Virus record (IMG/VR): IMGVR_UViG_3300045988_107221
Span: 1 to 44,774 of that record
From: a virus
DNA: 44,774 nt
Direction: 5' to 3' (one strand)
Each line of letters starts with the position of its first letter. Position 1 is the stretch's first letter. Under the pieces are notes generated by a model. That model was not told the DNA's origin, ran no database searches, and saw nothing but the letters and a program-made list of their open reading frames with translations. This document shows positions 3,021 to 44,774 of this stretch, one piece after another. The translations under genes were made by a program, and so were the position numbers.

Positions 3021-3416
3021 TCACAGAAATAATTCGTATATCACATCATCACTAAATAAGATAGGTTTGATCTTATTGATTAGTCTAGTTTTATTACGGC
3101 TTATCGTCGTCACTGTAGTATCATAATATTCTGCAATTTCTTCCCTTGTCTTTCTTTCAAAATAATACATTGGTATTGTATCATAATAAATATCGTCTTT
3201 GATCATTTCTAAAGCTGAATCTATTCGCTTTACTAATTTGACAGTATAAGGCTGATCGGACGTTTTGAATGCCTCATAATTCCGTAAAAGTTCTTCAGTC
3301 TTTTCGTATGCAGTCCTTTTTCCGTCTTTCATTAAACCTGCCATTTTTAACTTCAATACTGTAGCATTTACTGTCTCATTGATAATCTGTTTAATTTCAT
3401 GGGTTTCATAGTTCAT
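3021..3416 (-). CDS. ArpU-like / sigma-70 region-4-like late transcription regulator
   Basis: Start moved to the ATG at 3416 (RBS AAGGAAGGGG), giving 131 aa. The C-terminal HTH (REEIAEYYDTTVTTISRNKTRLINKI) resembles sigma region 4. It is monocistronic between two non-coding regions and sits immediately upstream of the late operon. Confidence 0.55.
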   Translation of the reverse strand: MNYETHEIKQIINETVNATVLKLKMAGLMKDGKRTAYEKTEELLRNYEAFKTSDQPYTVKLVKRIDSALEMIKDDIYYDTIPMYYFERKTREEIAEYYDTTVTTISRNKTRLINKIKPILFSDDVIYELFL

Positions 3417-3455
3417 ATTTACCCCTTCCTTTGGTCCGCTATTAAAAGTCATCAA

Positions 3456-3902
3456 TTCAAGATAAACTACTATATATTATATATTTACAAAACATCAAAA
3501 ATTTTTAATGATTTTACTTTATATATAAATAAATATAAAGTATCTTGACTTCTTGACTTTTTCAAATTGTCTATACAATTTATATGTGTCAACCGTCATA
3601 CTTTCGGGAGTTTTTTTGCTAAGTCAAGATGAATTGCAACATCTTGACTTATCTTGAATTTATCTTGACTTTTTTCACCATAATCAACCACTCCTAACTA
3701 CTTTTTGTAAAATAACAGTTGAGCGTGCTTACTCAACTGTTATTTTGTTTCATTTTTTATCTGTACTTATCTTGACTTATCTTGACTAGCAAATGTCCAC
3801 GAGCCGAAAGACATTTTCATGCGTGCCTATGAAAAAGTGTCTTTCCCTCGAAGACAAGTTCAAGATAAAGTCAAGATGAATTATTAAAATTCAAGATGAA
3901 TT
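3456..3902. repeat. array 1 of ATCTTGAC(T)/(A)GTCAAGAT boxes (12 copies, both orientations)
   Basis: Boxes start at 3456, 3542, 3551, 3623, 3641, 3651, 3662, 3769, 3779, 3859, 3870 and 3890, many spaced 10-11 bp apart. The array fills the 488-bp gap between dut and the late-regulator gene. Confidence 0.9.
3710..3757 (+). terminator. strong hairpin with a plus-strand T-tract (orphan plus-oriented terminator)
   Basis: Perfect 14-bp stem AAATAACAGTTGAG / CTCAACTGTTATTT with an 8-nt loop, followed on the plus strand by TGTTTCATTTTTT. The minus-strand side lacks a T-tract. Confidence 0.55.
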
Positions 3903-3904
3903 TA

Positions 3905-4324
3905 TTAGATGCCAGTGCTACCAAATGCACCGCTACCCCTCTCAGGACCACTTTCGGTGACAAAATCGGCAATAACTACCGGCACAATTACAAGCTGCCC
4001 GATGCGATCACCGTTGGAAATTTTAAAAGGTTTATCACTGCAATTAGTAACTATCGCATGAATCTCTCCACGGTAACCACTATCAATAGGAGGTAACTCA
4101 CACGTGATACCTTTACTACTTAATCCGCTCCTAGGAAATACATAGGCAGCATATCCATCAGGCAGACACAATCCTAATCCTAAAGGAATTTTTATTGTCG
4201 TATGAGGTGCTAATTTAATAGAACTACAATTGTGGAAACATACGTGTACGTCAGCGCCCGCATCATTATCGTGCGCTCTAAATGGCAATTTCTCATATCC
4301 AAAATCAATCACTTGAACCTTCAT
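3905..4324 (-). CDS. dut: trimeric dUTPase
   Basis: 139 aa with all five dUTPase motifs: AGADV, PRSGL, IDSGYRGE, RIGQLV and RGSGAFGSTG. Confidence 0.9.
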   Translation of the reverse strand: MKVQVIDFGYEKLPFRAHDNDAGADVHVCFHNCSSIKLAPHTTIKIPLGLGLCLPDGYAAYVFPRSGLSSKGITCELPPIDSGYRGEIHAIVTNCSDKPFKISNGDRIGQLVIVPVVIADFVTESGPERGSGAFGSTGI

Positions 4325-5139
4325 TATTTTTCTCCTTTATAAATATTGAATCGGTCTAATAGCTCTAATAATAATTCTTTGACATCCGCATTATGTCTAA
4401 TACCATAATCCACAAGTTCGGCGACAAATATTGCATGTTCGTGGAAATTCTCACGATTAAATGTGATCGGTTTGCTTATTGGGTTGGTTAATATTTCTAC
4501 GATTTTGTCTTCGTCTTTCTCATACATGTGAAGGCTTGTGACAAAATGCGTATAGATCCCATATCCCACATGTAATTCACTGGCGATATATTTCTGTAAC
4601 TCTGTGAAGAATGTAACATCATATGGGAAACCAAACCAAATATCATTACTCCTCATGATTCCCGTACAATGCAACTTTCTATCTCTGATAAGGAACTGTA
4701 GTGCAATCGTACAAGGTTCATCTTTGGTTTCAATCACCTCATCATTTGGCGTATTCAGATTAATGACCGCTCTCCTGCTATTTGGATCCTTTCTAAGTAA
4801 ATCAATCACTGTTTGGATTTGGTCAAAATCAAATGCACTTTTCATCAAATAACCGTATGCGCTATTAGAAGTTTTGCCGTCATCTGAAATTTTCTTCCAC
4901 ATACTACCAAAGGCTCCTATGAAATCAACTGAATTTCTACCAGTAAAGTACCATAATAGTTCACCAAATAAATATGTAGGAGAAATATTTCTAATACTTA
5001 CGATGTTGTTATTAATATCCGTCAGTGTAAACTGCATGTTATTAAGTTCTCTCGTGTTCCCTACCTTTGGGGCCTTTAATAATTTTGCACACACAGAAAG
5101 GTAAATATCATCAATATGACCGCTTATCATTTCTCGCAT
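4324..5139 (-). CDS. thymidylate-synthase-family enzyme, predicted dCMP hydroxymethylase/methylase type
   Basis: 271 aa. Catalytic-Cys region DEPCTIALQF aligns to PCHAFFQF of E. coli ThyA. MRSNDIWFGFPYDVTFF aligns to QRSCDVFLGLPFNIASY. The pyrimidine-specifying Asn is therefore Asp here. Confidence 0.7.
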   Translation of the reverse strand: MREMISGHIDDIYLSVCAKLLKAPKVGNTRELNNMQFTLTDINNNIVSIRNISPTYLFGELLWYFTGRNSVDFIGAFGSMWKKISDDGKTSNSAYGYLMKSAFDFDQIQTVIDLLRKDPNSRRAVINLNTPNDEVIETKDEPCTIALQFLIRDRKLHCTGIMRSNDIWFGFPYDVTFFTELQKYIASELHVGYGIYTHFVTSLHMYEKDEDKIVEILTNPISKPITFNRENFHEHAIFVAELVDYGIRHNADVKELLLELLDRFNIYKGEK

Positions 5140-5140
5140 C

Positions 5141-5899
5141 TTAATCCTCCTTCACTTTTAAAACCCACAGACAATTCCTCGCGTGTTCTGGTTTAATAAG
5201 AGGTGCCATGATTACAGAAAGCATATTCGTGTCATAATATTTTTTAAGCTCATCAAACATCGCCCGGCGCCAATCTCCTGCGATCTCTTCTCTATAATCC
5301 TTTATTGAAGCAAAGGTTCCATATTTAGCTTCAATGTCAAAATATTCGGATAATTTATCCTGCAGCTCGAAATGATCCCACTCCCCAACTTCTTTATTAC
5401 CTTCAGGGCCAAGCATGTGGTTTTTAGCTGCTCCTACATTTGGATCATAATTTGGAGTACTAAGGTAAACCCTTGTATTCTCATCACAATGGAATGCGAT
5501 ATTGTCGAGAAAGGCATCTGCATTCTCATGGCCGATGTGTTCCATGACTTCAAAACAAGTGATAATATCAAATGTCTGACCGAGATCAATTTCACTGCAA
5601 AGGTCCATCTGTCTGAATTCAGCAAAATCGAGCTTTGCAAATTTCTCATTGTTTTCATCGATGGTCTGTTTTCTGATGTCTAATCCTAAATACTGTTCTG
5701 GTCTATATCTGTTACGGTAAAATAACTCAAGCATTTCGCCTGTGCCGCATCCAAAATCAAGGATCGTTTGACCAATCTTTGCAACCTTTAAAATGTGTGT
5801 CCATCTGAGATAATGAGCAAACTGATCTCTATGATAAATATGTCTCTCAAATTCCTGCTGAGGTGTTAACTGTGTCTTGTTATAAATCTGCTTAGCCAT
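5141..5899 (-). CDS. class I SAM-dependent methyltransferase (substrate unknown)
   Basis: 252 aa. Motif I is ILDFGCGTGEM, with a later acidic motif and FEVMEHIG typical of the Methyltransf_11/23 fold. No DNA-MTase DPPY or PC-ENV motifs seen. Confidence 0.7.
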   Translation of the reverse strand: MAKQIYNKTQLTPQQEFERHIYHRDQFAHYLRWTHILKVAKIGQTILDFGCGTGEMLELFYRNRYRPEQYLGLDIRKQTIDENNEKFAKLDFAEFRQMDLCSEIDLGQTFDIITCFEVMEHIGHENADAFLDNIAFHCDENTRVYLSTPNYDPNVGAAKNHMLGPEGNKEVGEWDHFELQDKLSEYFDIEAKYGTFASIKDYREEIAGDWRRAMFDELKKYYDTNMLSVIMAPLIKPEHARNCLWVLKVKED

Positions 5900-6378
5900 T
5901 ATGCTATCTCCTTTTCTTCAACTAAATTAAAAATTTCCTGTAATGTCATTTTGGATGTATCAATGATTGGAATACTAAACTGCTTCGCATAAAATTTAAA
6001 ACGCTCATTGATATGGTTTAAGTTTTCATAAATTCGTTTATCTTCATCGCCTCGTTTATTTAATCTCTCATAAAGAGTGGTCATATCACATGTAAGCACA
6101 AATACCTTTACATTTTCTTTTTTCGCATAGTGTAAAATAATTCTCACATCCTCTGTTCCGAGTTGAGGCTTTCTATCAAAAATCTCAGGATAGATCAATT
6201 CACCAATTGTATGTCTATCCCATACGACGTTTTCTTTTCTTAAGGTCTGACGATAGAAGTTATAATCTGCTGCATCATACTGAGTACAATGACAAATGTC
6301 CAGCCCATATTTTTCTGCCAGAATCTTCGCCAATGTGGTTTTACCGGCTCCATCCACGCCTTCTAATATAACTTTCAT
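5899..6378 (-). CDS. thymidylate-kinase-like dNMP kinase
   Basis: 159 aa. The P-loop ILEGVDGAGKTT matches the Tmk signature (EGxDGxGKST). WDRHTIGE sits at the DRY-motif position. Confidence 0.7.
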   Translation of the reverse strand: MKVILEGVDGAGKTTLAKILAEKYGLDICHCTQYDAADYNFYRQTLRKENVVWDRHTIGELIYPEIFDRKPQLGTEDVRIILHYAKKENVKVFVLTCDMTTLYERLNKRGDEDKRIYENLNHINERFKFYAKQFSIPIIDTSKMTLQEIFNLVEEKEIA

Positions 6379-6379
6379 A

Positions 6380-8293
6380 TTAATCTCCTTTCTTTACAAA
6401 GATCCGATATTTTTTACCTTTGATGGTTTTATCGACTATTTTAAAATCAAAATGCTTTTTTACCTGCTTGCTAAATTCAATGTTACTCATTGGATTAAAA
6501 CTGTTTGCAATACAAAATTCGTTATACTTCTTATAAACATTTCTTGTTGGTTCATTTTCAATCTTTACATCTTCTTTGAAGAATAACAAAATAGGATTAT
6601 TATTTTCTGTGTATTCTTGCAATGCTTTATCCACTTTTTCGGATGATGTGAATTTCCTATTCTTCAATACTCGTTTAAGACCTTGTATCCCTAAATTAAT
6701 CAAATACTGCATTGGTTCTTCCTGTATCAGTTTATACTTGATATAAGGATCAAAATCCGGGTCATTGGGCGAGAATCTCGCATCAAATGGAATGATAACT
6801 AATCGGCTTATTACCGCTCCTGACTTATCTTTGATTCGTGGAATATCATTTGCTGAAAATAGCAGCTTCGCATAATTGGAGAAGTCGAACGGGTCTTTTC
6901 CTTTTCGTTCAACATTGATGGGGTTACCCGAAGCTAATTTCTTAAATACAGAAGGATTTGGAATAAATTCGCTACCAATATCATCACCAATATTTGCAAG
7001 CTTTCCGAATAATTCTGCCGTCTTAAATCTATCCCCAAGTTCCTTTAAATCGAGTGATGCGATATTCTTTCTTCCAAGCAAATTCTCAATCATTGAAAGA
7101 AAGGTTGATTTTCCATTCTCTTTTTCACCCGTCAATATGAAACATTTTCGCAGCTCATTCCTTCTATAAAAGCAATAACCGATACATTCTTCCAAGAGCA
7201 TTCTAATACTCTCATCTTGGCACGCTAACTTATTAAGGGTCTTATCCGTTAACTCTGAATATGCATCTGGGTCATAATCATATTCAATCTTATTTGTAAT
7301 TACGATGTCAGGAGTAAACGGCTCTAATGTATCAGTTTCAATGTTATAAATACCATTGTTAAATGCGATATAATTCGCGTGACTCATTGGTATATCCTTA
7401 TCTATCAAAATATCAAGATAACTTAATACTTCAGTTCGTTTGGTCTTATTCAAATTGCTGATATGTTTTATCATTTGAGCTTCTATCTCTCTAACCCCAT
7501 CCACATAAATGCCATCTTTATAGATATGTAATTGACCATTGATCTTGATAATGTGATTTACATTTTTTAAATAGGTGGCAAACTTATCGAATAAGAAGGA
7601 ATTCTTCTTGAAGAAAATAGGTTTTTTAAAAGCATCATCTCTGGATAATGTTTCTAGTTCTTCTTCATCAAGTGGATTCTTTAAAACATATTTATTAATA
7701 ATTCTGAGAACTTCTCTTGATTCTTTTACACTGAAATCATTGGCTTGTAATGTAAGGATGTAATTAAACAATGCTTGATTTCTGCCATCGCCGGCTTCCA
7801 TTTCGAAAAATTTCATCTTTGTATAGACGGGCAGCAACCATTTTGGCAGCGCTTCATATTCTTCATCGGGAAAAATATCGTATAAAATGAATCTTTCTTC
7901 GTTATTATATTTCAATACCGAATATGAATTTTTGCAGCCAACCTTTATATCTGCCTGTATTCCACAAGCAAGTGTCTTATTTATTCCACATTTATCAAGA
8001 ATGATTTCACCCATTGAGTCGATATTTTTAAATAAGAAATGCTTACCTCTAGTCGTTTCATATACTCGACAATTACATTGGAGATCTTCCACGATGTCCA
8101 TCAATGTTTCTGATTGCTCATAATCATCTACATCAATCAACACTACATTATCCGCAATGATGCCGGCGTACTCAGGTAAATTCTTTACCTGTTCGTATGT
8201 TCTTAATTCTGCTGGTGATTTATTTTTAAAAGGCATTAAGCATTTCTTATCTTTTGTTGGTACATATCCTTTAAATAATGACACCTTTTTCAC
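6380..8293 (-). CDS. bifunctional primase-polymerase / D5-P4 family SF3 helicase
   Basis: 637 aa. N-terminal Prim-Pol motifs LIDVDD and TTRGKHFLF. C-terminal Walker A ILTGEKENGKST and Walker B-like NIGDDIG, as in P4-alpha/D5-type primase-helicases. Confidence 0.85.
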   Translation of the reverse strand: MKKVSLFKGYVPTKDKKCLMPFKNKSPAELRTYEQVKNLPEYAGIIADNVVLIDVDDYEQSETLMDIVEDLQCNCRVYETTRGKHFLFKNIDSMGEIILDKCGINKTLACGIQADIKVGCKNSYSVLKYNNEERFILYDIFPDEEYEALPKWLLPVYTKMKFFEMEAGDGRNQALFNYILTLQANDFSVKESREVLRIINKYVLKNPLDEEELETLSRDDAFKKPIFFKKNSFLFDKFATYLKNVNHIIKINGQLHIYKDGIYVDGVREIEAQMIKHISNLNKTKRTEVLSYLDILIDKDIPMSHANYIAFNNGIYNIETDTLEPFTPDIVITNKIEYDYDPDAYSELTDKTLNKLACQDESIRMLLEECIGYCFYRRNELRKCFILTGEKENGKSTFLSMIENLLGRKNIASLDLKELGDRFKTAELFGKLANIGDDIGSEFIPNPSVFKKLASGNPINVERKGKDPFDFSNYAKLLFSANDIPRIKDKSGAVISRLVIIPFDARFSPNDPDFDPYIKYKLIQEEPMQYLINLGIQGLKRVLKNRKFTSSEKVDKALQEYTENNNPILLFFKEDVKIENEPTRNVYKKYNEFCIANSFNPMSNIEFSKQVKKHFDFKIVDKTIKGKKYRIFVKKGD

Positions 8294-9536: not shown

Positions 9537-11237
9537 TTACGCCCCCACTCCATATTGAGCTAATCGCTCTTTTGTAAGATTGATATACCAGTTTTTATCT
9601 AAATTCAAAGGGACTTTTTTATCATTAATATTGCTGTTATCAATAAAACAACGATCTGGCGTATTTGCAAATTTTTCTATTGTTGCACCTTCTTTCTTGC
9701 ATTTGCCGATATAAGTATCATGATTATTCTTTGATGCAAATGCCCGATAACATTTTTCCGACATATATTTTCCGTTATGCCAAGCTCGCCAGTATTTTCC
9801 TGAGAGTTTTACAACCTTTTGGAACATTTTAAGTTCATTACAATCACTAATCGTCTTCTCCACTGGCACACCATTTGTCATATAATCGACCATTGCTTTA
9901 TTGATAATTGGAAGATCATTATCTACCGGACTAAGCGCTTTTGTATAGGCACCTTTGGTCTTTGTTTTACCTTCAGGACTCACCAAAAGGTAGTTGTTTA
10001 CGTCCTTCTGAAATACCTTCGTATAAATATCAAAACCCATTCGCATACCTGTTCGCTTTTCCCATTCCCAAACAATATCATCAATTAAGTCATAATCATC
10101 AATTGATTTCAGTTTGATTAAAATACCATCAGTATTGGACTGGATAAATTTCTCAATATATGGCTCAAGTTTTTCTATAAGATCTACGAGAAGAAGCTGG
10201 CCATTCACACAAATAGCATTGTTTTCTCGTGGATCATATAATGGTGAAAATGCATCTTTGAGCTGACCAGAAATTGCATTATCGGCAATTTTATATGGCA
10301 ATCTCGCAACCTTATTTCCGGTTGCTTTCATCCTAAGATTCTCACCATGAATCTTTTCGAAGTTTTCCGGATTTCCCATATTGCGATAGCCAAACTTATA
10401 TCTTTGTTGTAATGATGGATAGTAAGCTGTAACATCAGCCATGAGATAAATTCCTTCGCCAAAATATTTTTTGATGGCACCGTGTAATCCACCCCATGCG
10501 AGAGTATGCTCAACCCCTGCGATCATGATTTTCTGCTTTTTCTTATAGTCATGATTTTCAGGATTTCTATACCAATCTCTAACAGCTCGATATTTTTTCA
10601 GTTTCAACGTATCAACGATTGGAAATTCAAATTCGTCATCGAATTTCTTACCTTTACCGCCTAGAATTTTAGCTACACGCTGCGCTCCAGTTTTTCCCAT
10701 ATAAGTAAGTGGAAGATTAAAGATTTTCACAAGGCCCATGGCAGCATCAAATTCCGCTTTTCTTGCAAGCCATACTTCGATGGTCTGTTCTACATCATGG
10801 TTACAATAAAAGAATGTTTGTTCTATTTCCTTCTCAGTGAGTGGCCTATCAATATCGAAAGGTACTGAAGTTTCTCGAATGTCATTTCCCATAAATGCCT
10901 CAAGGCTTTTTAAACCTGTATCCATTCTCAACATGGTGTCAAAATTAATCATCGTGATCTTATTGAATAGACCTGAATACATCCAACCCGGTTTATTGTC
11001 TTTAATGATCCAGTCGTTAACTTCCTTCGGATTCATATCCAACAAAATGGCCTTCATAATATATTGATCGTATCGTCGATTGTTATAACCAATCCAGATT
11101 TCTTCACAATGTGCATCAAAATAATTTTTAAGCGCCTGAACGTCATCTACAATTTTAGTGACAATTTTTTCTATTGGATTAATAATGACGACCAACCAAT
11201 TATATTTAAAAATCTCGAAATCATAGAAATTTAACAT
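9537..11237 (-). CDS. DNA polymerase with 3'-5' exonuclease domain (family-B-like motifs)
   Basis: 566 aa. Exo motifs: ExoI YDFE, ExoII NNRRYDQYI, ExoIII YCNHDVEQT. Polymerase motifs: A DVTAYYPSL, B-like KIADNAISGQ, C-like SNTDGI. Confidence 0.8.
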   Translation of the reverse strand: MLNFYDFEIFKYNWLVVIINPIEKIVTKIVDDVQALKNYFDAHCEEIWIGYNNRRYDQYIMKAILLDMNPKEVNDWIIKDNKPGWMYSGLFNKITMINFDTMLRMDTGLKSLEAFMGNDIRETSVPFDIDRPLTEKEIEQTFFYCNHDVEQTIEVWLARKAEFDAAMGLVKIFNLPLTYMGKTGAQRVAKILGGKGKKFDDEFEFPIVDTLKLKKYRAVRDWYRNPENHDYKKKQKIMIAGVEHTLAWGGLHGAIKKYFGEGIYLMADVTAYYPSLQQRYKFGYRNMGNPENFEKIHGENLRMKATGNKVARLPYKIADNAISGQLKDAFSPLYDPRENNAICVNGQLLLVDLIEKLEPYIEKFIQSNTDGILIKLKSIDDYDLIDDIVWEWEKRTGMRMGFDIYTKVFQKDVNNYLLVSPEGKTKTKGAYTKALSPVDNDLPIINKAMVDYMTNGVPVEKTISDCNELKMFQKVVKLSGKYWRAWHNGKYMSEKCYRAFASKNNHDTYIGKCKKEGATIEKFANTPDRCFIDNSNINDKKVPLNLDKNWYINLTKERLAQYGVGA

Positions 11238-11294
11238 AATATCACCTTAAAATACCGTGCGGGGTATTATTTTCCCCGCACAAAAGAATGTAAT

Positions 11295-11771
11295 TTATTC
11301 AGCATCAAAAACTTCATTAATAGAAATATTATTGAAAGCATCCTTTTTATATTCAATTTCATATTCAAGGCCCATATCATCAATGGCTTCTGCTACATCC
11401 ATAATCATTTCATTGAACTGCTCATAAGATTCAAATGATGTATCGATAGGATTTCCATCTTCATCTTCTGCCTCCAGTTTGCTCAAAAATCCGGACACAC
11501 TACCAATCATAGATCCGTCATTTTTTGTTCCATAGATGACACGGTTCATAAACAGGCAGCTCCTTTTATGCTCACCTTCAGTAATACGAAACATCGCTTT
11601 AAACATTGGGCGATGATCTTTTGTTTCTCCAAGTTCGAGCTTTTCAAATATACCAATGTATGTACCGTCTTCAATTTCAGGATAATCTCCCATGCCATTT
11701 TTAGCTGCTTCTGCTGCATCAGCTTTGAGCTGATCCAAATTTACCTGTTCGTCAAATTTACTAAAATCCAT
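11295..11771 (-). CDS. acidic DUF669-like protein (possible ssDNA-binding partner of the AAA_24 ATPase)
   Basis: 158 aa and very acidic. Its position between an AAA_24-type ATPase and the polymerase is the usual context of DUF669. The family assignment is from memory only. Confidence 0.45.
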   Translation of the reverse strand: MDFSKFDEQVNLDQLKADAAEAAKNGMGDYPEIEDGTYIGIFEKLELGETKDHRPMFKAMFRITEGEHKRSCLFMNRVIYGTKNDGSMIGSVSGFLSKLEAEDEDGNPIDTSFESYEQFNEMIMDVAEAIDDMGLEYEIEYKKDAFNNISINEVFDAE

Positions 11772-11786
11772 TTATTTGTCCTCCTA

Positions 11787-12080
11787 TTATCCTTTGATAC
11801 AAGCATCTTTAAAATAAACTGTAATACTATCAATATTTCTACTAGATTTGACCGTGATAACTGTGTCTATATCTTCGAGTGTATTACACTCGGCCATCAT
11901 TAACGGCTCTGTGGCTTCTTCCGTGTACATTTTTCTATACAGCTTGTCAATTCTATCCGGGTCGGCCTCTAACTCGTTACCGCACAGCCCTATAAATTTA
12001 CATTTACTACAGTCATGACTGTCACAATAATTATTGATTGCGTTAAGTTTCTCGCTGGTAGTAAAACTATCAAATTTCAT
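11787..12080 (-). CDS. hypothetical Cys-rich protein
   Basis: Start moved to the ATG at 12080 (RBS GTGAGG), 97 aa. Contains NNYCDSHDCSKCKFIGLCG. Confidence 0.55.
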   Translation of the reverse strand: MKFDSFTTSEKLNAINNYCDSHDCSKCKFIGLCGNELEADPDRIDKLYRKMYTEEATEPLMMAECNTLEDIDTVITVKSSRNIDSITVYFKDACIKG

Positions 12081-13715: not shown

Positions 13716-14150
13716 CTAATCAACCACGAAACTTCCAAACAATGGAAACCATTTATCTTCTGCTAAACTAGCGCCATCTGAGACTGCCTCAATCTTAATT
13801 GCACCATCAACACCTATCAGTAATCTCACAAACTGTGCTCTAGTGGTGCTCAACATAGATGTGTTTTGAACGATCGATACACTTTTAGTTGGTCTAAATC
13901 CTACTGGCAACGTTCCTATTGTACCGACAGCAGTAACTCCTTTAACTGACCCACGAATAAAACAAATGTTTCCTATTTTCCGATACTCTGGTACTGCACC
14001 AGTGTCATTATAAGGCTGGATGCCCGATGTAAGAGGTAGTGTGATCCATCCGCTATCAGTTATGGATGCTTGTTCCAGTGCAGCAACTCTATTTTGTAAC
14101 TGTACAACCTGTTGTTGTAATAACGCAATGTCTTCATAAATAGTAGCCAT
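13716..14150 (-). CDS. fibre-tip-like protein (N-terminal coiled coil plus beta-rich knob)
   Basis: 144 aa, RBS GGAGG. N-terminus MATIYEDIALLQQQVVQLQNRVAALE, then GWITLPL...YRKIGNICFIRGSVKG...LPVGFRP. This pattern is recalled from C-terminal receptor-binding domains of phage fibres. Confidence 0.5.
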   Translation of the reverse strand: MATIYEDIALLQQQVVQLQNRVAALEQASITDSGWITLPLTSGIQPYNDTGAVPEYRKIGNICFIRGSVKGVTAVGTIGTLPVGFRPTKSVSIVQNTSMLSTTRAQFVRLLIGVDGAIKIEAVSDGASLAEDKWFPLFGSFVVD

Positions 14151-14163
14151 AGCTCAATCCTCC

Positions 14164-14844
14164 TTAATTGTTTGTATAGTAAATTTGAACGAACCCGCTC
14201 AATGCAGTTCTGTCTTTACCTGTACCGATGCAGATTTTTCCATCATGTCTCAAGTAACATGAAATAATATTTGCAGGTGTAGGATGTGGATTTGGAAGTG
14301 GAATAGAATCTCCATCGCCATATACCATACCTTTAATATCGACCACTTTAATGTTTGCAGGTGTTAAACCACTTGAAATTTCTTTGATCGCATCATTTGG
14401 CAGATTACCGGTATTAATGGTTTTACAATATACAGGCTTTCCATCAAACATTTCATTTGTTATTTTTGATGAACCGGTGACCATTTCCTTATCGCCAATC
14501 ATAGCCCAATTGGAAAATGTTCCATTTTCCTGCATTCTTGTCCAAATACGATTGTTTGTTCTTTCGATATAATACTGTTTGTTATACTTCGTTCCCTGTG
14601 TACAATGCGGAATATTAATAAAATACCCGTTACTTGTACCGGTTGGTTTATTTACACATCCATTACCATAACCGACATAAATCTTACCAATGTAGGTATT
14701 TAGATTTTTGTCTGTAAGATCTATGGTGTATTTTGATAATAAATCATTTACGTCTGGTATATTCCCTGTTAAATTTGCGACGTCTTGTTGTACTGTTGTC
14801 ATTGCTACTTCTAAAGCGTCAACCCTTTCATATATTGTTGGCAT
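14164..14844 (-). CDS. fibre-tip-like protein (N-terminal coiled coil plus knob domain)
   Basis: 226 aa, RBS AAGGAGG. The N-terminus MPTIYERVDALEVAMTTVQQDVANL is paralogous to that of 13716..14150. The central NGYFINIP...RIWTRMQENGTFSNW resembles knob-type fibre domains. Confidence 0.5.
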   Translation of the reverse strand: MPTIYERVDALEVAMTTVQQDVANLTGNIPDVNDLLSKYTIDLTDKNLNTYIGKIYVGYGNGCVNKPTGTSNGYFINIPHCTQGTKYNKQYYIERTNNRIWTRMQENGTFSNWAMIGDKEMVTGSSKITNEMFDGKPVYCKTINTGNLPNDAIKEISSGLTPANIKVVDIKGMVYGDGDSIPLPNPHPTPANIISCYLRHDGKICIGTGKDRTALSGFVQIYYTNN

Positions 14845-14848
14845 AATT

Positions 14849-15418
14849 TTAATCCTCCTTTTCTATTACTCTTGATGCCCACATGTCTGCAAAATGTAGA
14901 ATCATATAAAGTGGTGTTTCTTTTCCTTGAATCTCATATTTCAACGGACCATAAAGGCCATTGTGATATAAAATCGCATGTTGTTCTTCTTCTGTGAGAT
15001 CAATAAACATGGTAGCAATGACCACACTTCTAATCTCATGTGGAATATTCAATAAATCTGAATTAGTAGTAAATGGTTTTACCTTTGACGGCTTACCATC
15101 TTTCAATATGTTTGGTACATATAATGATTTTCCGAATTGTCCACATTTCCCAAGGTCATGAAGTAATGAACAAATGACTACAGAATCCTGAATCTCATTA
15201 TATTTTGCTCCACCTAACCAAGCTACACCAAGCTTTTCAGCAAGATTTAGAACATTTATGCTATGCTCTGCAAGTCCTCCCTCTTTTGCAAGATGATATG
15301 ACCCGCTACACGGCGCTGTCAGAAATCCAATATTATTCATATAGTCGAGTAATTCAATCACGCCTTCTCTTTTTGTTTTCATAAGATAATCTCGGATAAT
15401 GTCTGCAACATTTTCCAT
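14849..15418 (-). CDS. HD-domain phosphohydrolase
   Basis: Start moved to the ATG at 15418 (RBS AAGGAG), 189 aa. Contains H...HDLGK and a later HNG/HFAD His-Asp pattern. Confidence 0.7.
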   Translation of the reverse strand: MENVADIIRDYLMKTKREGVIELLDYMNNIGFLTAPCSGSYHLAKEGGLAEHSINVLNLAEKLGVAWLGGAKYNEIQDSVVICSLLHDLGKCGQFGKSLYVPNILKDGKPSKVKPFTTNSDLLNIPHEIRSVVIATMFIDLTEEEQHAILYHNGLYGPLKYEIQGKETPLYMILHFADMWASRVIEKED

Positions 15419-15419
15419 A

Positions 15420-15767
15420 TCAAAAACTCCTTTCATTAATCGTTGCGACCAGCGCACGCGCTTGAATGATTCGTTCAGCATTTAACGCCCGAATCATATC
15501 TTTAAACATCTGAAATTGATCGGGATAGAGAATGACCGCATATCCATTCGCCATGCTGTTTATACGGGCTACATTGTATTTTTGCAACTCTGACGGTTTA
15601 CCATTTTGCGCTTTTACTTCAATGGCCACAAAATAACCGTTGATGCACGCCAAAATGTCTGGCACACCGTTCTTTGTCATTCGGTTCGCAAAAAATTTAA
15701 CCTGCCAACCGAAATTATCTTCGATATGTTTTTTTATCTTGTTTTCAAAGTTCTTTTCCTGTGCCAC
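15420..15767 (-). CDS. VRR-NUC domain nuclease
   Basis: 115 aa. GVPDILACINGYFVAIEVKAQNGKPSELQ gives the D...E-x-K nuclease core typical of VRR-NUC. Confidence 0.75.
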   Translation of the reverse strand: MAQEKNFENKIKKHIEDNFGWQVKFFANRMTKNGVPDILACINGYFVAIEVKAQNGKPSELQKYNVARINSMANGYAVILYPDQFQMFKDMIRALNAERIIQARALVATINERSF

Positions 15768-18358: not shown

Positions 18359-18604
18359 TTATTCCTCGCCGTCACCTTCTTTAATGAAGTCAATGACTTC
18401 CTGAACAGTAAGAGGGTCCGTTGCATTATTTTCAAGATAATCTTTGAAAGAAATGTCCGGGGAAATTATCCCGCTTTTAACGCCCGCTAAGTATTCTTTC
18501 ATAAGGGGCTGCTGTACATCTTCTGGTCTTGCTGTTGTGCCATTTTTTAAGATGATAGTTTTTCCAAGTTCAATCTGTTTTTCTAACTGTTTTACAATAT
18601 TCAT
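18359..18604 (-). CDS. hypothetical early protein
   Basis: Start moved to the ATG at 18604 (RBS GGAGAAAGG), 81 aa. First gene transcribed divergently from the repressor. Confidence 0.55.
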   Translation of the reverse strand: MNIVKQLEKQIELGKTIILKNGTTARPEDVQQPLMKEYLAGVKSGIISPDISFKDYLENNATDPLTVQEVIDFIKEGDGEE

Positions 18605-18896
18605 ATTATTGCCTTTCTCCACGTTTCGGCGTTGGTCACCGTGTTTTTGTTTACAATATTATTCTACTATAATTTCCAGCATTTGTATATTGACATTTTA
18701 CACAAAAATTTTATTTTATATTAGTTATTTTTACTAATTTCATAAAATCCTTACTTTTTACGCTTTTATTATATTAAGATAATTTCCAATTGACAACACA
18801 AAATGCGTAATTTCTTTACGAGAACATTTGTTCGATTGACTTTGTATATTGCGGATATTATCCTATAATTGTACATATGCACGGGGAGGCGTTAGA

Positions 18897-19244
18897 ATGG
18901 AGGCAGGAGAAGTTATCAAAAAATTGCGTAATGAAAAGAAATTTACGCAATCAGAATTGGGAATTATGCTAGGAGTGAATACATCGTCAATTCAAAAATA
19001 TGAAAGCGGAGCTACCAAAAATCTGAAATTAGAAACAATCAGGGAGTTATGTCATATATTTGATGTACCTCCTCTAGTCTTTGTTTTTCCAGAAATACTA
19101 GATGAAGGTTTCGATGCATATCATGAAAGAATGTTCAAGGACCATATGAAGGCATCACTAAATGTAAATGAAGAAGGTATAAAGAAGATATTTGACTATA
19201 TAAGCGACATTCAATCTATGCCGAAGTATCAAAAGTCAAGATGA
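18897..19244 (+). CDS. XRE-family repressor (CI-like, no S24 peptidase domain)
   Basis: ATG at 18897 with RBS GGGGAGG, 115 aa. HTH FTQSELGIMLGVNTSSIQKYESG. Divergent from the early operon and upstream of int. Confidence 0.75.
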   Translation: MEAGEVIKKLRNEKKFTQSELGIMLGVNTSSIQKYESGATKNLKLETIRELCHIFDVPPLVFVFPEILDEGFDAYHERMFKDHMKASLNVNEEGIKKIFDYISDIQSMPKYQKSR

Positions 19245-19447
19245 ATTCAAGATAGTTCAAGATAAGGAAATTCATCTTGAATTGGCTTAGGGCTTACGGT
19301 TGACACATATTTGAACTGAAAAGTCAAGAAGTCAAGTTAATTTCTACTTTTTATATATAAGCTAAAATCATTAAAAATTTTTGATGTTTGTAGAAAATAA
19401 TATATAAGTAAATATATATCTTGAACTTGACTTCTTGACTTTTGACA
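19235..19447. repeat. array 2 of (A)GTCAAGAT/ATCTTGAC(T) boxes (about 9 copies)
   Basis: Boxes start at 19235, 19246, 19256, 19274, 19323, 19331, 19418, 19425 and 19433. 19297..19400 is the inverted counterpart of 3484..3597. The array ends in TTGACTTCTTGACTTTTGACA, 20 nt before the int start. Confidence 0.9.
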
Positions 19448-19466: not shown

Positions 19467-20471
19467 TTGCGGAGAGCAAATGGAGAAGGTTCAATTTTTA
19501 AGCTAAGCGGTAAACGTCGTAAACCTTACGCCGTAAGAATTACAGTTGGTTATACGAATGAAGGAAAACAGCTATACAAATATGTTGGTTATTATTCCAC
19601 CAAAACAGAAGCCAAAAATGCAATGAGAGAATATCTTGTCAACCCATTCAATTTAGACCATAAGAGCACCAAGCTCAAAGATGTATACGATAGGTGGTCA
19701 GACCAGAGTCAATTGGCCCAAACGACTATGCAGAGTTATGGTTCCGCTTTCAACCAAGCAAAGCAGCTTCACAACATGAGCATGAGAGACATCAAGGCTG
19801 CACACTTGGAAGCTGCTATGGATCAAATGAAACCTCATATGCGCAGCGTGTTTAAAAATGCTATGGGGAAAGTATATACATATGCTATCAAGCACGAGGT
19901 TGTTGATAAGGACCTCATGAGTCTGATCTCAGTGAAAACTACAGTGGAGACAAAAGAGAAAACACCATTCACCTTGGCTGAGATCAACAAACTGAAAACA
20001 TTTAAGCATCCATTAAATGACACCGTTTTCATCCTTTTGTATACGGGATTGCGGATCAATGAATTGCTTGATATTAAATGTGAAAATGTTCACTTGGATG
20101 AACGGTATATGATTGGAGGTAAGAAAACGAAGGCGGGCCAGAATCGAATCATTCCAATTCATGATGCAATTTATCCTTTAATAAAATCAAGATGTGAACA
20201 AGAAAATAAGTATCTGATAACCAAAGATAACAAGAAGATCAATTATGCTACATACAGAATTAGCTATTGGAATAAAATGAACTCTGCACTCGGGTTTAAA
20301 CATACACCGCACGACACACGTCACACATTTACGACATTTGCAGATAGATGCGACGTGCATAAAGTAGCATTGAAGAGAATTTTAGGTCATACGTTGAGCG
20401 ATATGACTGATCATTATACCCATAAAGATCTCGATGAATTACTGGCTGAGATCAATAAAATTGTATATTAA
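19467..20471 (+). CDS. int: tyrosine recombinase / phage integrase
   Basis: 334 aa. TTG start after AAAGGGAGAG. Catalytic pattern TGLRINEL (Arg), HDTRHTF (His-x-x-Arg) and LGHTLSDMTDHYTH (His...Tyr). Confidence 0.9.
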   Translation: MRRANGEGSIFKLSGKRRKPYAVRITVGYTNEGKQLYKYVGYYSTKTEAKNAMREYLVNPFNLDHKSTKLKDVYDRWSDQSQLAQTTMQSYGSAFNQAKQLHNMSMRDIKAAHLEAAMDQMKPHMRSVFKNAMGKVYTYAIKHEVVDKDLMSLISVKTTVETKEKTPFTLAEINKLKTFKHPLNDTVFILLYTGLRINELLDIKCENVHLDERYMIGGKKTKAGQNRIIPIHDAIYPLIKSRCEQENKYLITKDNKKINYATYRISYWNKMNSALGFKHTPHDTRHTFTTFADRCDVHKVALKRILGHTLSDMTDHYTHKDLDELLAEINKIVY

Positions 20472-26627: not shown

Positions 26628-29600
26628 TTATATGGGTTGCGTCATGGCTTTAACCATGCTTACCTGTTGCCGTCTAGCTCTATAAGTTTCAAGTGCTGAA
26701 AGTGATTTTGGACTCGTATTATTCTGCACAAGATTGTAATTGTTTACAATCGTCTGATTATTATTTGCAATTCCATTTCCTGTACTACTTTTGACTGCAC
26801 TTCTCATATTTGGAATGTTTGTTGTCACATCAGTGAGTGGAGTGGTTACGCCACTAATAAATTTCTTTGCATTTTCCTGTACTTGTTTGATACTATCAAG
26901 CAATCCGTTTCCAAATCCTCGGCCTGTAAAAATACCGAGTTTTTCAGTAACTTTTGATGGGCTATGTATATCTAGTTCGTCTTTAAATTCATCCACCATG
27001 GCTTTTACCATCGTTTTGATCGCACTAGTCATATAGTCCGTATTCTTAGTGAGTCCAGAAGTAAATCCGGCCATGACTTGTTGTCCAATCTCTTCAAGTT
27101 GTTTTGGTAGATCTTTAAACGCTTGCTTTAAAGAATTTTGATATTCACTTGCAATATTATCGAAATCTTTCGAATAAGTTTTTTGTGCTAACTCTTCAGA
27201 TACTTTCATTTTTTCATCATAAGCATCTGAATACGCTTTTAGATCTGCATCACTCATAGATAAAAGTCTGTCCATGAAGGCGTTTCCTTGGTCCATGTCG
27301 TAACTTGCAATTTGGTCGAATAATTCCGAGGATACTTTATTTTTGACTGTTTGCAATTTATCCGCATAGTCTTTAATGCTTTGCGTCTGTGCCTTAATGT
27401 CATTAACTGTCATAATTCCGGCATCAGAGATTGTAAATAGATCACCAGCACTCTGCAATTTTGAAATCAATGTGTTTTGTTTCTCAATTAAACTGTCATA
27501 TTTTGTTTGATAGGTGTCGGTAATACCATTTATTGTATCATCGATAAGGGCCTGCGCCTGTGTTTGATACTCACTCATAGCGCTCGAAAATTCAGAAAGC
27601 ATCTGGGAAGAAGCTGTCTGATAAGCGTTGTTGAATTCTGTCTGGTCTTTAACTAACTGTTTATAGTTATTAACCTGTTTCTTTGCAGCAGACATATTCT
27701 TTTTCTGAGAAGCCATGGTCTTTTTATCGGCTGCCATTTCCTTTTTGTACGTCGCCATCTGCTTTTTATATTTCGTCTTATCAGACTTTTTCTTTGCTTT
27801 GTCGTAGCTTTTCTTTGCTTTGTTGTAGTTTTTTGACGCTTTGTCATAGCTCGTTTTTGCTTTGTCGTACTTACTCTTAGCGGTATCATATTTTTTCTGG
27901 TAAGTGCTTTGCTTACTTTCGTACTTAGACAACTGATTCTCTAAACCAGCCGTTTTTTGGTCGTTTAGATATTGCATTTTGCTAGTCATATAATTAATTT
28001 TATCTGACATCGCTTTAGAAAATACAGAACTTGCCTCACTTGCCACGCTGGAAAAATTAAAATTACTTAATCCGGCCAGTGTAGTTATGACGCTCTTAAC
28101 TGTATTTTTTACAGTGTTCGTAAGGTCTGTCTGTTCGCTTACAATCCCGTTAATGTACCCTTTCACAAAATTCTTACCGCTGTCATACGTTAACTTGGAC
28201 GGTGAACCCTCTTTTTGCGCGTCCCGTAAGGATTGTACGGACTGTACACCCATCTGCGCCGCGGACTGTACGGCGGCTTTTGTCATAGACTGAATACCGT
28301 TTGTATAACCCTGTCCGAAATATTTACCGGATTGTGTCGTTAACTTGGACGGTGAACCCTCTTTTTGTCCTTTTTTCAGTCCAGCCCATGCCTTTTTAGC
28401 TAGAGACTCGGCTTTAGAATACGCTGCACTTACGAGTGAACCGATACCATTGATAAAACCTTGTGCAAAATTTGTACCGGAACTATATGCACTTACGGAA
28501 CCGGCTCCACTTTTGGCGTTATCTCCTAACGATTTACCCTTACTTCTCGCGGTTCCTGTCTTACTTCCTACGCCGCTAGCGTATTCTGTACCTGCTTTTG
28601 CACCTGTTTTGTGCATCCCGCCGGAACCGCTTTTTGCACCGGTGTCGGCACTCTTTCCGATTGTCTGACCGGCTTTCTGGTTCTGTCCTTTTGTATCCGA
28701 TACTCCGGCGGCGTGATTCTTACCGGCTTTTGTTCCGGTCGCTTTCGCACTCTTTGCTCCGTTTGCCTGTCCGGTGACTACGGCTTTACCGTCTGCCTGT
28801 CCTGCCTTTTTATTCGCGCCGGTCGTACTCTTTGCGCCCGTGGCGTGGTCTTTACCTGGCTTCTTCCCGGCGGCTTTCGCACCTTTAGAACCTTCTTTTT
28901 GTCCGTCAACGGTGGCTTTTCCTAATGCTTTACCCGCTTCTTCCGCGGTCGTTTTCCCGGCTAAAATCTGTTTGACAAGGTTATTGACTGTATTTGTTCC
29001 GTCCTGTCCAGCTTTTGCCGCTACATCCTTAAAGGATACCGCGTCATTGATTAATTTCGCGGCTTGGTCTACGCTGGTTTTTCCTGTTGCAATCCCTTGC
29101 ATGAGTGATTGTGGGATTTGCTTTCCAGTGATACCGGCTTGCGTCAATGTCTGTTTAAAATCAATCGCGGTTTGTAACTGCTTTGTTGCGGTATCCACAC
29201 TGATTTTTCCGCTTGCGATTCCGTTTGCTAACGATTTAGGCACTTCCACACCCGCATTTTTCGCCTTAGTCACAACGTCGCTAGAATTAAAATCTAACGC
29301 ACTTTGTAACTGTTTCGTGGCCTGTTCAACGGACACTTTACCGCTCGCGATTCCATCCCGTAACGATTTAGGTATTTTTATACCTGCTTCTTTTGCGGCG
29401 GCTAACGTCTGTGAATTGTCAAATTTCGCGATATTTGAAAGGCGGTTCACTGCCTCCTGCGCGGAAATTTCGCCGCTGGAAATTCCCTCGGCTAAGCTTT
29501 TCGGGATTTTCACGCCGTCAACTTTCGCCTGTTTTGCCAGATTGTCAAACTTAATAAGGTTTTCCATACCCTCAACGGTGGATGGTACTTCATACTGACC

Positions 29601-32297: not shown

Positions 32298-32311
32298 TTT
32301 CTCACCACCTT

Positions 32312-32868
32312 TTAGAACCAATCATCGCCAGCTGGTCGCCGGATAACCCTGTTATCGTTGCTATCATTGTCCCCTCGTTTTGCTTCTCGAAGTTGCAGTG
32401 CTCGAACGTCACTATATAATCTGATCACATCATGAAATGTGTGTTTTTCAATATCATAAGGCGTCATTGCTGGAAATTCTTTGCATAATTGATAGTTAAT
32501 ATCGAATAATACTTCAAAGAGCGGAGTGTCATCCACTCCGCCCTCTAGTTTTTTGGGTCTTTAGGAATAGATAAAATCTCGGAAAAAGAAGATTTTAAGA
32601 TGTTTAATACCGCTGGTACTAACTCTTTTAATTTCACATGCTCCCAATCTTCCGGTTCCATATCTGGAAAACACTGTCCTAAAATTCCTACAAGCTGCTC
32701 CCATGCTCCATAAATAACAGTCAATAATTCACCTGTATCATTCACATTATCAACGTTTAAAAGTTTCATAAGAGAGCGGATTGTTCCAAATTCTAAATCT
32801 ATAGTCTGAGCTTCGCAAGTCTTTTTGATCTGATTATTTTCATCGTAAACATTAATCGCTAATTTCAT
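32312..32868 (-). CDS. tail assembly chaperone G-T fusion made by -1 programmed frameshift
   Basis: The -1 frame is open from the slippery site into ORF 32312..32536, reading KKLEGGVDDTPLFEV... The C-terminus is ...RRPAGDDWF. Confidence 0.75.
32545..32868 (-). CDS. tail assembly chaperone (G-like)
   Basis: 107 aa and acidic, between the major tail protein and the tape measure. Ends ...PKDPKN-stop at the slippery site. Confidence 0.8.
   Translation of the reverse strand: MKLAINVYDENNQIKKTCEAQTIDLEFGTIRSLMKLLNVDNVNDTGELLTVIYGAWEQLVGILGQCFPDMEPEDWEHVKLKELVPAVLNILKSSFSEILSIPKDPKN
32548..32554 (-). promoter_or_regulatory. -1 ribosomal frameshift slippery heptamer A-AAA-AAC
   Basis: The minus strand reads GAC CCA AAA AAC TAG. 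The X-XXY-YYZ heptamer sits in the correct phase, and the last zero-frame codon is followed by the stop. Confidence 0.8.
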
Positions 32869-44389: not shown

Positions 44390-44767
44390 TTATGATACCG
44401 TTATAGTCGGGATACCGTCCCTTTTTAGTAAAATCAATCTACATTTAACACTCAAATAATCCGTGTGCGTTGTTTTGAAATATACAGATAATTTATTCGT
44501 ATTGCGTATAAATACGTTTAGTATATCTGTATTTGCCATTGTGTAATAATTTTCGTTATAGGTTGCATCGTCACTACGAACAAACATTTTAGAAATAAGA
44601 GAAGTGTTCACAAAAGTCCACCCGTCGGGTAACTGAATTGACTTAGTTGTGCCTGATTGAATAGACGGTATTTCAACAATCAATAATTTTTTTTCTATCT
44701 CACCTTTTGGCACTACTTCCCTTTTACATTTATTTGTTCCGCAAAATCCATATACTTTTTCGCTCAT
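44390..44767 (-). CDS. hypothetical protein (spans the circular junction region)
   Basis: 125 aa. Its RBS lies beyond the window end, seen in the duplicated copy at about 90..97. Confidence 0.55.
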   Translation of the reverse strand: MSEKVYGFCGTNKCKREVVPKGEIEKKLLIVEIPSIQSGTTKSIQLPDGWTFVNTSLISKMFVRSDDATYNENYYTMANTDILNVFIRNTNKLSVYFKTTHTDYLSVKCRLILLKRDGIPTITVS

Positions 44768-44774
44768 CCGGTTG
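44686..44774. repeat. second copy of the 89-bp terminal repeat
   Basis: Identical to 1..89. Confidence 0.95.

Follow-up and report, generated by a model that had tools for sequence, protein, structure and literature searches.

What use does a temperate phage have for a ThyA homologue, a Tmk-like kinase, a dUTPase and a methyltransferase encoded one after the other behind its replication genes? The question is raised by IMGVR_UViG_3300045988_107221, a viral sequence from IMG/VR that was analysed over its whole length of 44,774 nt and is referred to below as the window. A preliminary description, drawn from the DNA letters, had taken these four genes for a candidate base-modification cassette through which the phage might replace cytosine with a 5-substituted derivative. 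The present analysis predicts that the ThyA homologue is a folate-dependent deoxycytidine monophosphate (dCMP) hydroxymethylase. It also indicates that the S-adenosylmethionine (SAM)-dependent methyltransferase (MT) encoded next to it belongs to a family of dedicated partners of such enzymes. Several explanations compete for what the MT does, and these are weighed below.

The ThyA homologue is a predicted dCMP hydroxymethylase

The protein matches the Pfam thymidylate synthase family (PF00303, Thymidylat_synt) with 101 bits, and lies below all eight NCBIfam ThyA models, with scores of at most 85 bits against cut-offs of 108-576. Against the NCBIfam equivalog models the best scores were 85 bits, for cut-offs of 174.55 and 327. 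The strongest sequence match in the PDB is MilA, a cytidine monophosphate (CMP) 5-hydroxymethylase, at 103 bits; thymidylate synthases score 63 bits or less and the dCMP hydroxymethylase of phage T4 scores 54. A structure predicted with AlphaFold (AF2), with a predicted local distance difference test (pLDDT) value of 94, was compared to solved structures with Foldseek. MilA was again the top match, with a template modelling (TM) score of 0.82 and 32-33% identity over 260 columns, as compared to TM scores of 0.63-0.68 for thymidylate synthases and 0.67 for the T4 enzyme. The failed NCBIfam cut-offs and the proximity of MilA in both sequence and predicted structure thus bear out the expectation that the protein would not fall among ordinary thymidylate synthases.

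The preliminary description had aligned the homologue by eye with E. coli ThyA. Both aligned segments, PCTIALQF with PCHAFFQF and RSNDIWFGFPYD with RSCDVFLGLPFN, hold in HMMER and MAFFT alignments. This puts the Asp of the homologue at E. coli position 177, where the window protein reads PYD and E. coli ThyA reads PFN, and the claim of a cytosine-specifying Asp in place of Asn stands. Alignment was extended to T4 gp42 and RB69 gp48, both taken from their genomes; E. coli numbering is used throughout. The active site of the homologue comprises E58, W80, Y94, R126, R127, D143, C146, T147, M165, R166, S167, N168, D169, G173, D177, H207 and Y209. T4 gp42 is identical at all 17 of these positions. 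E. coli ThyA differs at five (L143, H147, Q165, C168 and N177), and RB69 gp48, a 5-hydroxy-dCMP synthase, differs in having N169 and V173. The catalytic Cys146 is present along with Glu58, Tyr94, Arg166, His207 and Tyr209, all of them invariant in 120 relatives, and the active-site signature is kept in each of the 120 closest metagenome relatives.

Published residue rules allow this signature to be read. Asn at position 177 goes with uracil and Asp with cytosine (PMC8670742, PMC5175136, PMC13326640). Leu at position 143 accompanies a methyl product and Asp or Glu, acidic residues associated with the access of water, a hydroxymethyl product, while replacement of Asp169 with Asn marks the flavin-dependent 5-hydroxy-dCMP synthases (PMC13326640). 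Ser167 and Arg126 specify deoxyribose, and MilA and BcmA have Ala and Lys (Ala176 and Lys133) there (PMC5175136). In the window protein, the motif K-D-E-P-C puts Asp at position 143, and the deoxyribose-specifying sites read RSND and SRR where MilA has RAND and SKR. On the strength of the residues identical to gp42, combined with these rules, we predict that the protein is a folate-dependent dCMP hydroxymethylase, that is, a 5-hydroxymethyl-dCMP (5hmdCMP) synthase. Since Asp169 is kept, the predicted product carries a 5-hydroxymethyl rather than a 5-hydroxy group. The preliminary description had allowed for either 5-hydroxymethylcytosine (5hmC) or 5-methylcytosine (5mC); D143 and the gp42 signature narrow the choice to the former, and 5mC was dropped.

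Three other assignments were considered and rejected. A canonical ThyA (EC 2.1.1.45) is contradicted by Asp, Asp, Thr and Met in place of Asn177, Leu143, His147 and Gln165, and by the NCBIfam scores; judged on these residues and scores, the protein is not a thymidylate synthase. A 5-hydroxy-dCMP synthase of the RB69 gp48 or DLP3 gp80 type would carry the D169N change, and the homologue keeps both Asp169 and Gly173. Finally, a CMP hydroxymethylase of the MilA/BcmA type would have the ribose-preferring Ala176 and Lys133, where Ser and Arg are found. An N-glycosidase partner such as MilB or BcmB gave no Pfam match among the approximately 55 open reading frames (ORFs) of the window that were scanned, a set that covers part of the small ORFs.

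The methyltransferase accompanies dCMP hydroxymethylase homologues

Profile scanning of IMG/VR with the MT family returned at least 531 stretches, and 82 MT-centred viral loci were analysed. At E≤1e-30 the family contains 114 protein clusters (50% identity). The MT gene has a ThyA homologue no more than 6 kb away in 79 of the 82 loci, in at least eight gene orders, and every one of these 79 homologues has D143, D169 and D177. Two of the three remaining loci are truncated by a contig end. In the clade of the window, the order polymerase-primase-kinase-MT-ThyA homologue-dUTPase is conserved in 19 loci, and sequence conservation is in every case higher for the MT than for its neighbour, the ThyA homologue (for example, 92% versus 74%, or 84% versus 57%). 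Relatives with 27-53% identity occur in similar modules of unrelated phages: L007, where the order is hydroxymethylase homologue-MT-kinase-MazG-dCMP deaminase; MW202510, where it is MT-MazG-Tmk-hydroxymethylase homologue-deaminase-polymerase; MW202621; and Stenotrophomonas phage AXL3. From this near-constant company with D143/D169/D177 ThyA homologues, the MT family is, as far as gene neighbourhoods tell, a dedicated partner of dCMP hydroxymethylase and not a passenger. The suggestion in the preliminary description that the MT might add a further step to the pathway is much strengthened by this linkage, which includes phages as unrelated to the window as AXL3.

AXL3 is the only cultured carrier of the MT family that was found. 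Its module consists of gp31 (MT), gp30 (nucleoside triphosphate pyrophosphatase), gp29 (kinase), gp28 ("thymidylate synthase") and gp27 (dCMP deaminase), the authors having annotated the two nucleotide enzymes as thymidylate synthase and thymidylate kinase. As AXL3 encodes a ThyX besides, gp28 is free to serve another purpose. According to the paper describing the phage, only two of 37 restriction enzymes, TasI (AATT) and Tru1I (TTAA), cut virion DNA, which resists the other 35. Cleavage confined to sites made of A and T implies that a G/C base is modified. No follow-up on the AXL3 modification was found in the literature.

The largest group of MT loci (L063-L101, e.g. L069 7237-7731) comprises 41 loci with the order MT-dUTPase-ThyA homologue. 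Between motifs 2 and 3, the dUTPase-fold protein of this group has 18 inserted residues, KWACLGAGRTPKAEAFES, and its motif 2 reads DKSG rather than PRSG. On the 51.5-kb viral contig of L069, a response regulator gene (Response_reg and Trans_reg_C; 11213-11911) sits some 1.6 kb downstream of the gene for the ThyA homologue and is either phage-borne or part of host DNA flanking a prophage. Many relatives have a small ORF (about 106 aa), with no Pfam match, between the MT and ThyA homologue genes, as at 7688-8008 of L004; in L015-L026 the corresponding gaps measure 210-310 nt. This ORF is absent from the window.

Sequence features of the methyltransferase

The window MT matches the generic class I families Methyltransf_23, 12, 25 and 11 of Pfam. 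Among signs of a DNA methylase, neither a DNA-methyltransferase Pfam match nor a (D/N/S)PP(Y/F/W) or PCQ/ENV motif, as expected for C5, N4 or N6 enzymes, was found in it. Assignment as a Hen1 RNA 3'-terminal 2'-O-methyltransferase was rejected, TIGR04074 scoring 32 bits against a cut-off of 340 and no Pnkp-like gene being present in the cassette. The family has motifs of its own, HRDxxxHxxRW, GxG, EVxEH, STP, AxNH, YxD, AP and RNxLW, which are spread along the whole length of the protein. Four representatives (P0278, P0338, P0386 and P0266) have N-terminal extensions of 70-210 residues. These partner regions have no Pfam match; they might hint at the substrate.

Kinase, dUTPase and candidate pool enzymes

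The kinase matches Pfam AAA_18 and Thymidylate_kin (39.5 against a cut-off of 27) and PHROG 761, "thymidylate kinase", with 82 bits. It scores 46 with the NCBIfam DTMP_kinase model, under the cut-off of 83, and its PDB matches are weak. A P-loop (GVDGAGKTT) and a DRH motif are present. By analogy with practice in T4 and RB69 (PMC13326640), the protein may serve as the deoxynucleoside monophosphate (dNMP) kinase for modified dCMP.

By its sequence the last gene of the cassette certainly encodes a member of the dUTPase family: PF00692 scores 78 bits, NF001862 scores 104.5 against a cut-off of 103, PDB dUTPases match at about 1e-19, and all five motifs can be read (AGADV, PRSG, IDSGYRGE, GDRIGQL and RGSGAFGSTG). 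Compared with two PDB dUTPases, the hairpin of motif 3 is shorter by two residues and has their Asn replaced (CELPP-ID). A role as a dCTP/dUTP pool enzyme is possible. Across the 82 MT loci a dUTPase-fold protein occurs in 62 and a MazG/PRA-PH pyrophosphatase in 12, never together. This mutual exclusion suggests that the dUTPase-fold protein has the same pool-controlling role as the MazG-type gp56 of T4.

Homologues of dCMP deaminase (as in AXL3, which is locus L034, and in L002, L007 and L035) go only with modules of the MazG type (13 loci) and never with those of the dUTPase type. Some such phage deaminases prefer 5mC, according to a 2024 preprint (10.1101/2024.12.05.627091). No MazG, dCMP deaminase or glycosyltransferase homologue was detected in the window at E≤0.1. 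The preliminary description had proposed that an HD hydrolase could clear the nucleotide pool. We found no support for this: the protein has a weak Pfam HD match, a PHROG of unknown function and no PDB relative, and the candidate was rejected. The HD protein does not occur in distant MT modules, and its longest ORF spans 14849-15481, rather than 14849-15418 as previously given.

A proposed T-even-type pathway with a methyl cap

How might these activities fit together? The explanation that we favour, although we rate its chances of being right as even, is a pre-replicative cytosine replacement of the T-even type in which the MT stands where relatives carry glycosyltransferases, and whose product would most simply be 5-methoxymethylcytosine. 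In this pathway the ThyA homologue would convert dCMP and methylene-tetrahydrofolate to 5hmdCMP, the step best supported of all, by residue signature and structure. The Tmk-like kinase would then phosphorylate 5hmdCMP, host nucleoside diphosphate kinase would complete the triphosphate, and the phage polymerase, presumably the user of the modified nucleotide, would incorporate it during lytic growth or following induction. The dUTPase-fold enzyme would exclude dUTP from the pool and might also hydrolyse dCTP, returning dCMP to the ThyA homologue. The MT would methylate hydroxymethylcytosine, either as nucleotide or in DNA, the simplest reaction being O-methylation of the 5-CH2OH group to give 5-methoxymethylcytosine. 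Such a methyl cap, with SAM as its sole requirement, could shield the base from restriction enzymes as well as from type IV enzymes directed at 5hmC. We suggest more tentatively, and with doubt slightly prevailing, that the MT family as a whole O-methylates 5hmC at the nucleotide or DNA level, and that 5-methoxymethylcytosine replaces cytosine in the gut and rumen clade of the window, in AXL3 and in hundreds of uncultured phages. The literature searched contained no mention of methoxymethylcytosine as a DNA base, nor of an MT partner of dCMP hydroxymethylase.

A number of points weigh against this proposal. Temperate phages do not usually replace a base completely. The rule that links Leu143 to methyl and Asp or Glu143 to hydroxymethyl products is correlative and does not amount to proof. 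The dUTPase scores above the cut-off of the NCBIfam dUTPase model and may have no activity beyond that of a dUTPase; as the window has neither a MazG-type dCTPase nor a dCMP deaminase, complete replacement of cytosine is not assured. In 63 of the 82 MT loci no kinase or P-loop ORF lies within about 5 kb. The MT itself is generic: its best PDB sequence matches, MmaA4 and Hen1, score about 30 bits, and its predicted structure, of moderate quality (pLDDT 72.6), matches cap guanine-N7 methyltransferases, cyclopropane-fatty-acid (CFA) synthase and small-molecule N-methyltransferases at TM scores of about 0.5. With fold and sequence this generic, the atom methylated and the form of the substrate cannot be read from the MT. 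Moreover, the pI of MT homologues ranges from 5.2 to 9.2, which amounts to no consistent DNA-binding signature.

One alternative is a different methylated hydroxymethylcytosine, in which the MT would target N4, N3 or the nucleotide phosphate rather than the hydroxymethyl oxygen. The co-occurrence of MT and ThyA homologue serves this alternative equally, and with N-methyltransferases and a cap guanine-N7 enzyme among the top Foldseek matches, the fold is no less consistent with N-methylation than with O-methylation. We nevertheless consider it unlikely, if deserving of serious attention, because most known pyrimidine hypermodifications of phages proceed by group transfer to an existing hydroxyl (PMC13326640), because a methyl group at N3 or O2 would disturb base pairing, and because the MT has no motif of DNA N4 or N6 methyltransferases.

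It is rather improbable, in our judgment, that the phage DNA contains plain 5hmC and that the MT acts elsewhere, be it on RNA in a Hen1-like 2'-O reaction, on a cap-like nucleotide, on a protein or on a host metabolite. An unrelated activity does not sit well with the near-obligate adjacency of MT and D177 ThyA homologue in phages that are unrelated and differ in gene order, nor with the greater conservation of the MT than of the ThyA homologue within the module; a Pnkp or ligase partner of Hen1 is also missing from the window. Set against this are the weak similarity of the MT to Hen1 and cap methyltransferases, the annotation of one relative as "capping protein", and the existence of fusions to unknown domains.

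The two other alternatives are in conflict with the residues tested and with the genomic context. An ordinary thymidylate supply, with the dUTPase providing dUMP, the ThyA homologue making dTMP, Tmk phosphorylating it and the MT being incidental, would account exactly for a gene trio that is the canonical dTTP route, for the "thymidylate synthase" of public annotations and for a dUTPase that passes the NCBIfam model. It is made very improbable by Asp177, Asp143, Thr147, Met165 and Asn168 in place of the ThyA residues, by ThyA scores of at most 85 bits against cut-offs of 108-576 with MilA rather than a thymidylate synthase as closest relative, and by AXL3, which has ThyX besides and DNA modified at G/C. 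A bacimethrin- or mildiomycin-like route to a pyrimidine antimetabolite, through a MilA/BcmA-type hydroxymethylase, a BcmC-like MT and a kinase, is scarcely credible in spite of MilA being the closest solved structure and of the combination of ThyA homologue, MT and kinase that Cooper et al. in 2014 reportedly described in the bacimethrin cluster, given the deoxyribo-type Ser and Arg in place of Ala176 and Lys133, the want of an N-glycosidase among the ORFs scanned, a kinase that is Tmk-like and not ThiD-like, the position of the genes inside a replication operon and the fact that AXL3 DNA itself is modified.

Organization of the cassette and of the phage genome

The preliminary description had reported four consecutive, coupled genes behind a primase-helicase and a phage polymerase, and all four ORFs are present at the coordinates given, on the minus strand (Table 1). 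The primase-helicase gene lies directly upstream of the cassette in the same operon. At the junctions, stop and start codons are arranged as TAA-T-ATG (primase/kinase), TAATG (kinase/MT), TAA-G-ATG (MT/ThyA homologue) and TAATG (ThyA homologue/dUTPase), with a GGAG Shine-Dalgarno sequence 7-10 nt upstream at each. These overlaps and spacings, along with the GGAG sites, indicate tight translational coupling of the cassette as one unit. The further statement that the cassette ends the operon finds its sole hint in a hairpin beyond the dUTPase gene. The T-run of the hairpin is on the plus strand and the cassette is on the minus strand, hence an operon end at this place is only suggested.

Table 1. 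Positions of the cassette genes and associated features in the window
Feature	Position	Strand	Size	Remarks
Hairpin	3707-3748		17-bp stem	Terminator-like match about 160 nt downstream of dUTPase stop; possible operon end
Trimeric dUTPase-fold dNTP pyrophosphatase	3905-4324	minus	139 aa	Cassette
ThyA homologue	4324-5139	minus	271 aa	Cassette; predicted dCMP hydroxymethylase
Class I SAM methyltransferase (MT)	5141-5899	minus	252 aa	Cassette
Tmk-like P-loop nucleotide kinase	5899-6378	minus	159 aa	Cassette
D5-type primase-helicase	6380-8293	minus		Pfam D5_N, DUF5906, Pox_D5; PHROG 864, 687 bits
Phage DNA polymerase	9537-11237	minus	566 aa	PHROG 1252, 483 bits
HTH_3 repressor	18849-19244			Lysogeny module
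Tyrosine integrase	19467-20471			Lysogeny module

Bases 1-89 of the window are repeated exactly at 44686-44774. This 89-nt direct terminal repeat indicates a circular or terminally redundant assembly and a complete genome, with 44,685 bp of unique sequence. Genes for terminase, portal, protease, capsid and tail proteins are present. As the preliminary description had supposed, the phage has the repressor and integrase genes of a lysogeny module; by gene content it is a temperate, siphovirus-like phage of 44.7 kb. A lysin with GH25 and CW_7 domains and a GC content of 37% suggest a Gram-positive host, and a host scan of genome contigs returned nothing beyond mis-binned contigs of metagenome-assembled genomes. 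A megablast search with the cassette and half of the window against 50,697 phage records gave zero matches. GenBank has proteins of the window only in the form of third-party annotations of metagenomes (DAU64696.1 and DAU64697.1, "Bacteriophage sp.").

Several features of the genome were recorded in passing. The polymerase has no Pfam family at E≤0.001 and appears to be of a divergent lineage, a constant companion of the cassette in the clade of the window. Two ORFs of the replication operon, 13716-14150 and 14164-14844, lack Pfam matches and align with PHROG families named "minor tail / tail fiber protein" over C-terminal portions only (E about 1e-10 and 1e-5), an odd location for such sequences. 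The octamer TCAAGATA occurs 14 times in the window, where 2.5 copies would be expected. The gap (3457-3867) between the cassette and a regulator-like ORF (3021-3455) holds seven of them, in either orientation and frequently in the form GTCAAGATAAGTCAAGATA, and four surround the repressor gene (region 18432-19424). The copies are probably operator sites of one regulator that connects the lysogeny switch with late or early control, or else iterons. A tape-measure-like ORF (26628-32321; 1897 aa) contains two 75-nt direct repeats with 75% identity, 150 nt apart, at 28143-28367. Inspection of the window genome for restriction-site avoidance yielded nothing informative beyond CCWGG and CTAG.

Significance

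The new element in this proposal is the MT, which we picture as the decorating enzyme of a T-even-type pathway in a temperate phage and, by the spread of its gene, as a widespread one. If the MT does complete a hydroxymethylcytosine pathway, a very common module, present in at least 531 IMG/VR stretches, would yield a new natural DNA base, and would do so in temperate phages, which do not as a rule exchange one base entirely for another. The proposal is directly testable, AXL3 being in culture and its DNA already known to resist enzymes that cut at G/C-containing sites. A methylase selective for 5hmC, if this is what the MT turns out to be, would find use in epigenetic sequencing and labelling. 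Furthermore, thousands of public phage annotations as "thymidylate synthase" probably refer to dCMP hydroxymethylases.

Comparison with known systems

AXL3 resembles the window in its MT (27% identity, with all of the family motifs) and in a ThyA homologue with D143, D169 and D177. It differs in having a MazG-type pyrophosphatase and a dCMP deaminase and no dUTPase fold, and in being a virulent phage of a Gram-negative host.

T4, with gp42, the dNMP kinase gp1, the dCTPase/dUTPase gp56 and alpha- and beta-glucosyltransferases, shares with the window the 17-site signature, a kinase, a pyrophosphatase and a polymerase of its own; in both cases, decoration of the hydroxyl group is expected to follow. 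However, identity to gp42 is only about 24%, a trimeric dUTPase fold replaces the MazG-type gp56, and a class I SAM MT would take the role of the glycosyltransferase, of which none was found. The T-even phages are large virulent myoviruses, whereas the window is a siphovirus-like temperate genome of 44.7 kb. MilA and BcmA, from the mildiomycin and bacimethrin pathways, are the closest solved relatives of the ThyA homologue, down to the C-terminal helices, and share Asp177 and Asp143 with it; the window protein departs from them in the Ser/Arg pair, in having no N-glycosidase partner among the ORFs scanned and in its setting in a phage replication operon.

Among cultured phages, the ThyA homologue has its closest relatives, with 44-55% identity and the same signature, in Enterococcus phages of the Planchet/VPE25/9183 group and in Lactobacillus phage ATCCB. 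These phages have the kinase-ThyA homologue(-dUTPase) order of the window. Unlike the window, they have genomes of 80-86 kb and carry glycosyltransferase genes just downstream (ATCCB has a UDP-galactopyranose mutase gene besides), with no MT of this family annotated. Glycosyltransferases in the place of the MT fit the rule that most known phage pyrimidine hypermodifications arise through transfer of a group onto a pre-existing hydroxyl handle.

In the metavirome survey MetaGPA, the Pfam families Thymidylat_synt, dUTPase, PRA-PH (MazG), dCMP deaminase and Thymidylate_kin are enriched in cytosine-modified contigs. The 5-carbamoyloxymethylcytosine pathway described there, composed of a dCMP hydroxymethylase and a 5hmC carbamoyltransferase, follows the scheme proposed here, an Asp177 enzyme making the hydroxyl handle and a linked enzyme decorating it. 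The arabinosylation of 5-hydroxycytosine in RB69 and DLP3 obeys the same logic of handle first and decoration second, although the window enzyme keeps Asp169 and is predicted to make the 5-hydroxymethyl form. What sets the window apart from the carbamoyltransferase and arabinosylation systems is that its putative decorating enzyme is a SAM-dependent methyltransferase.

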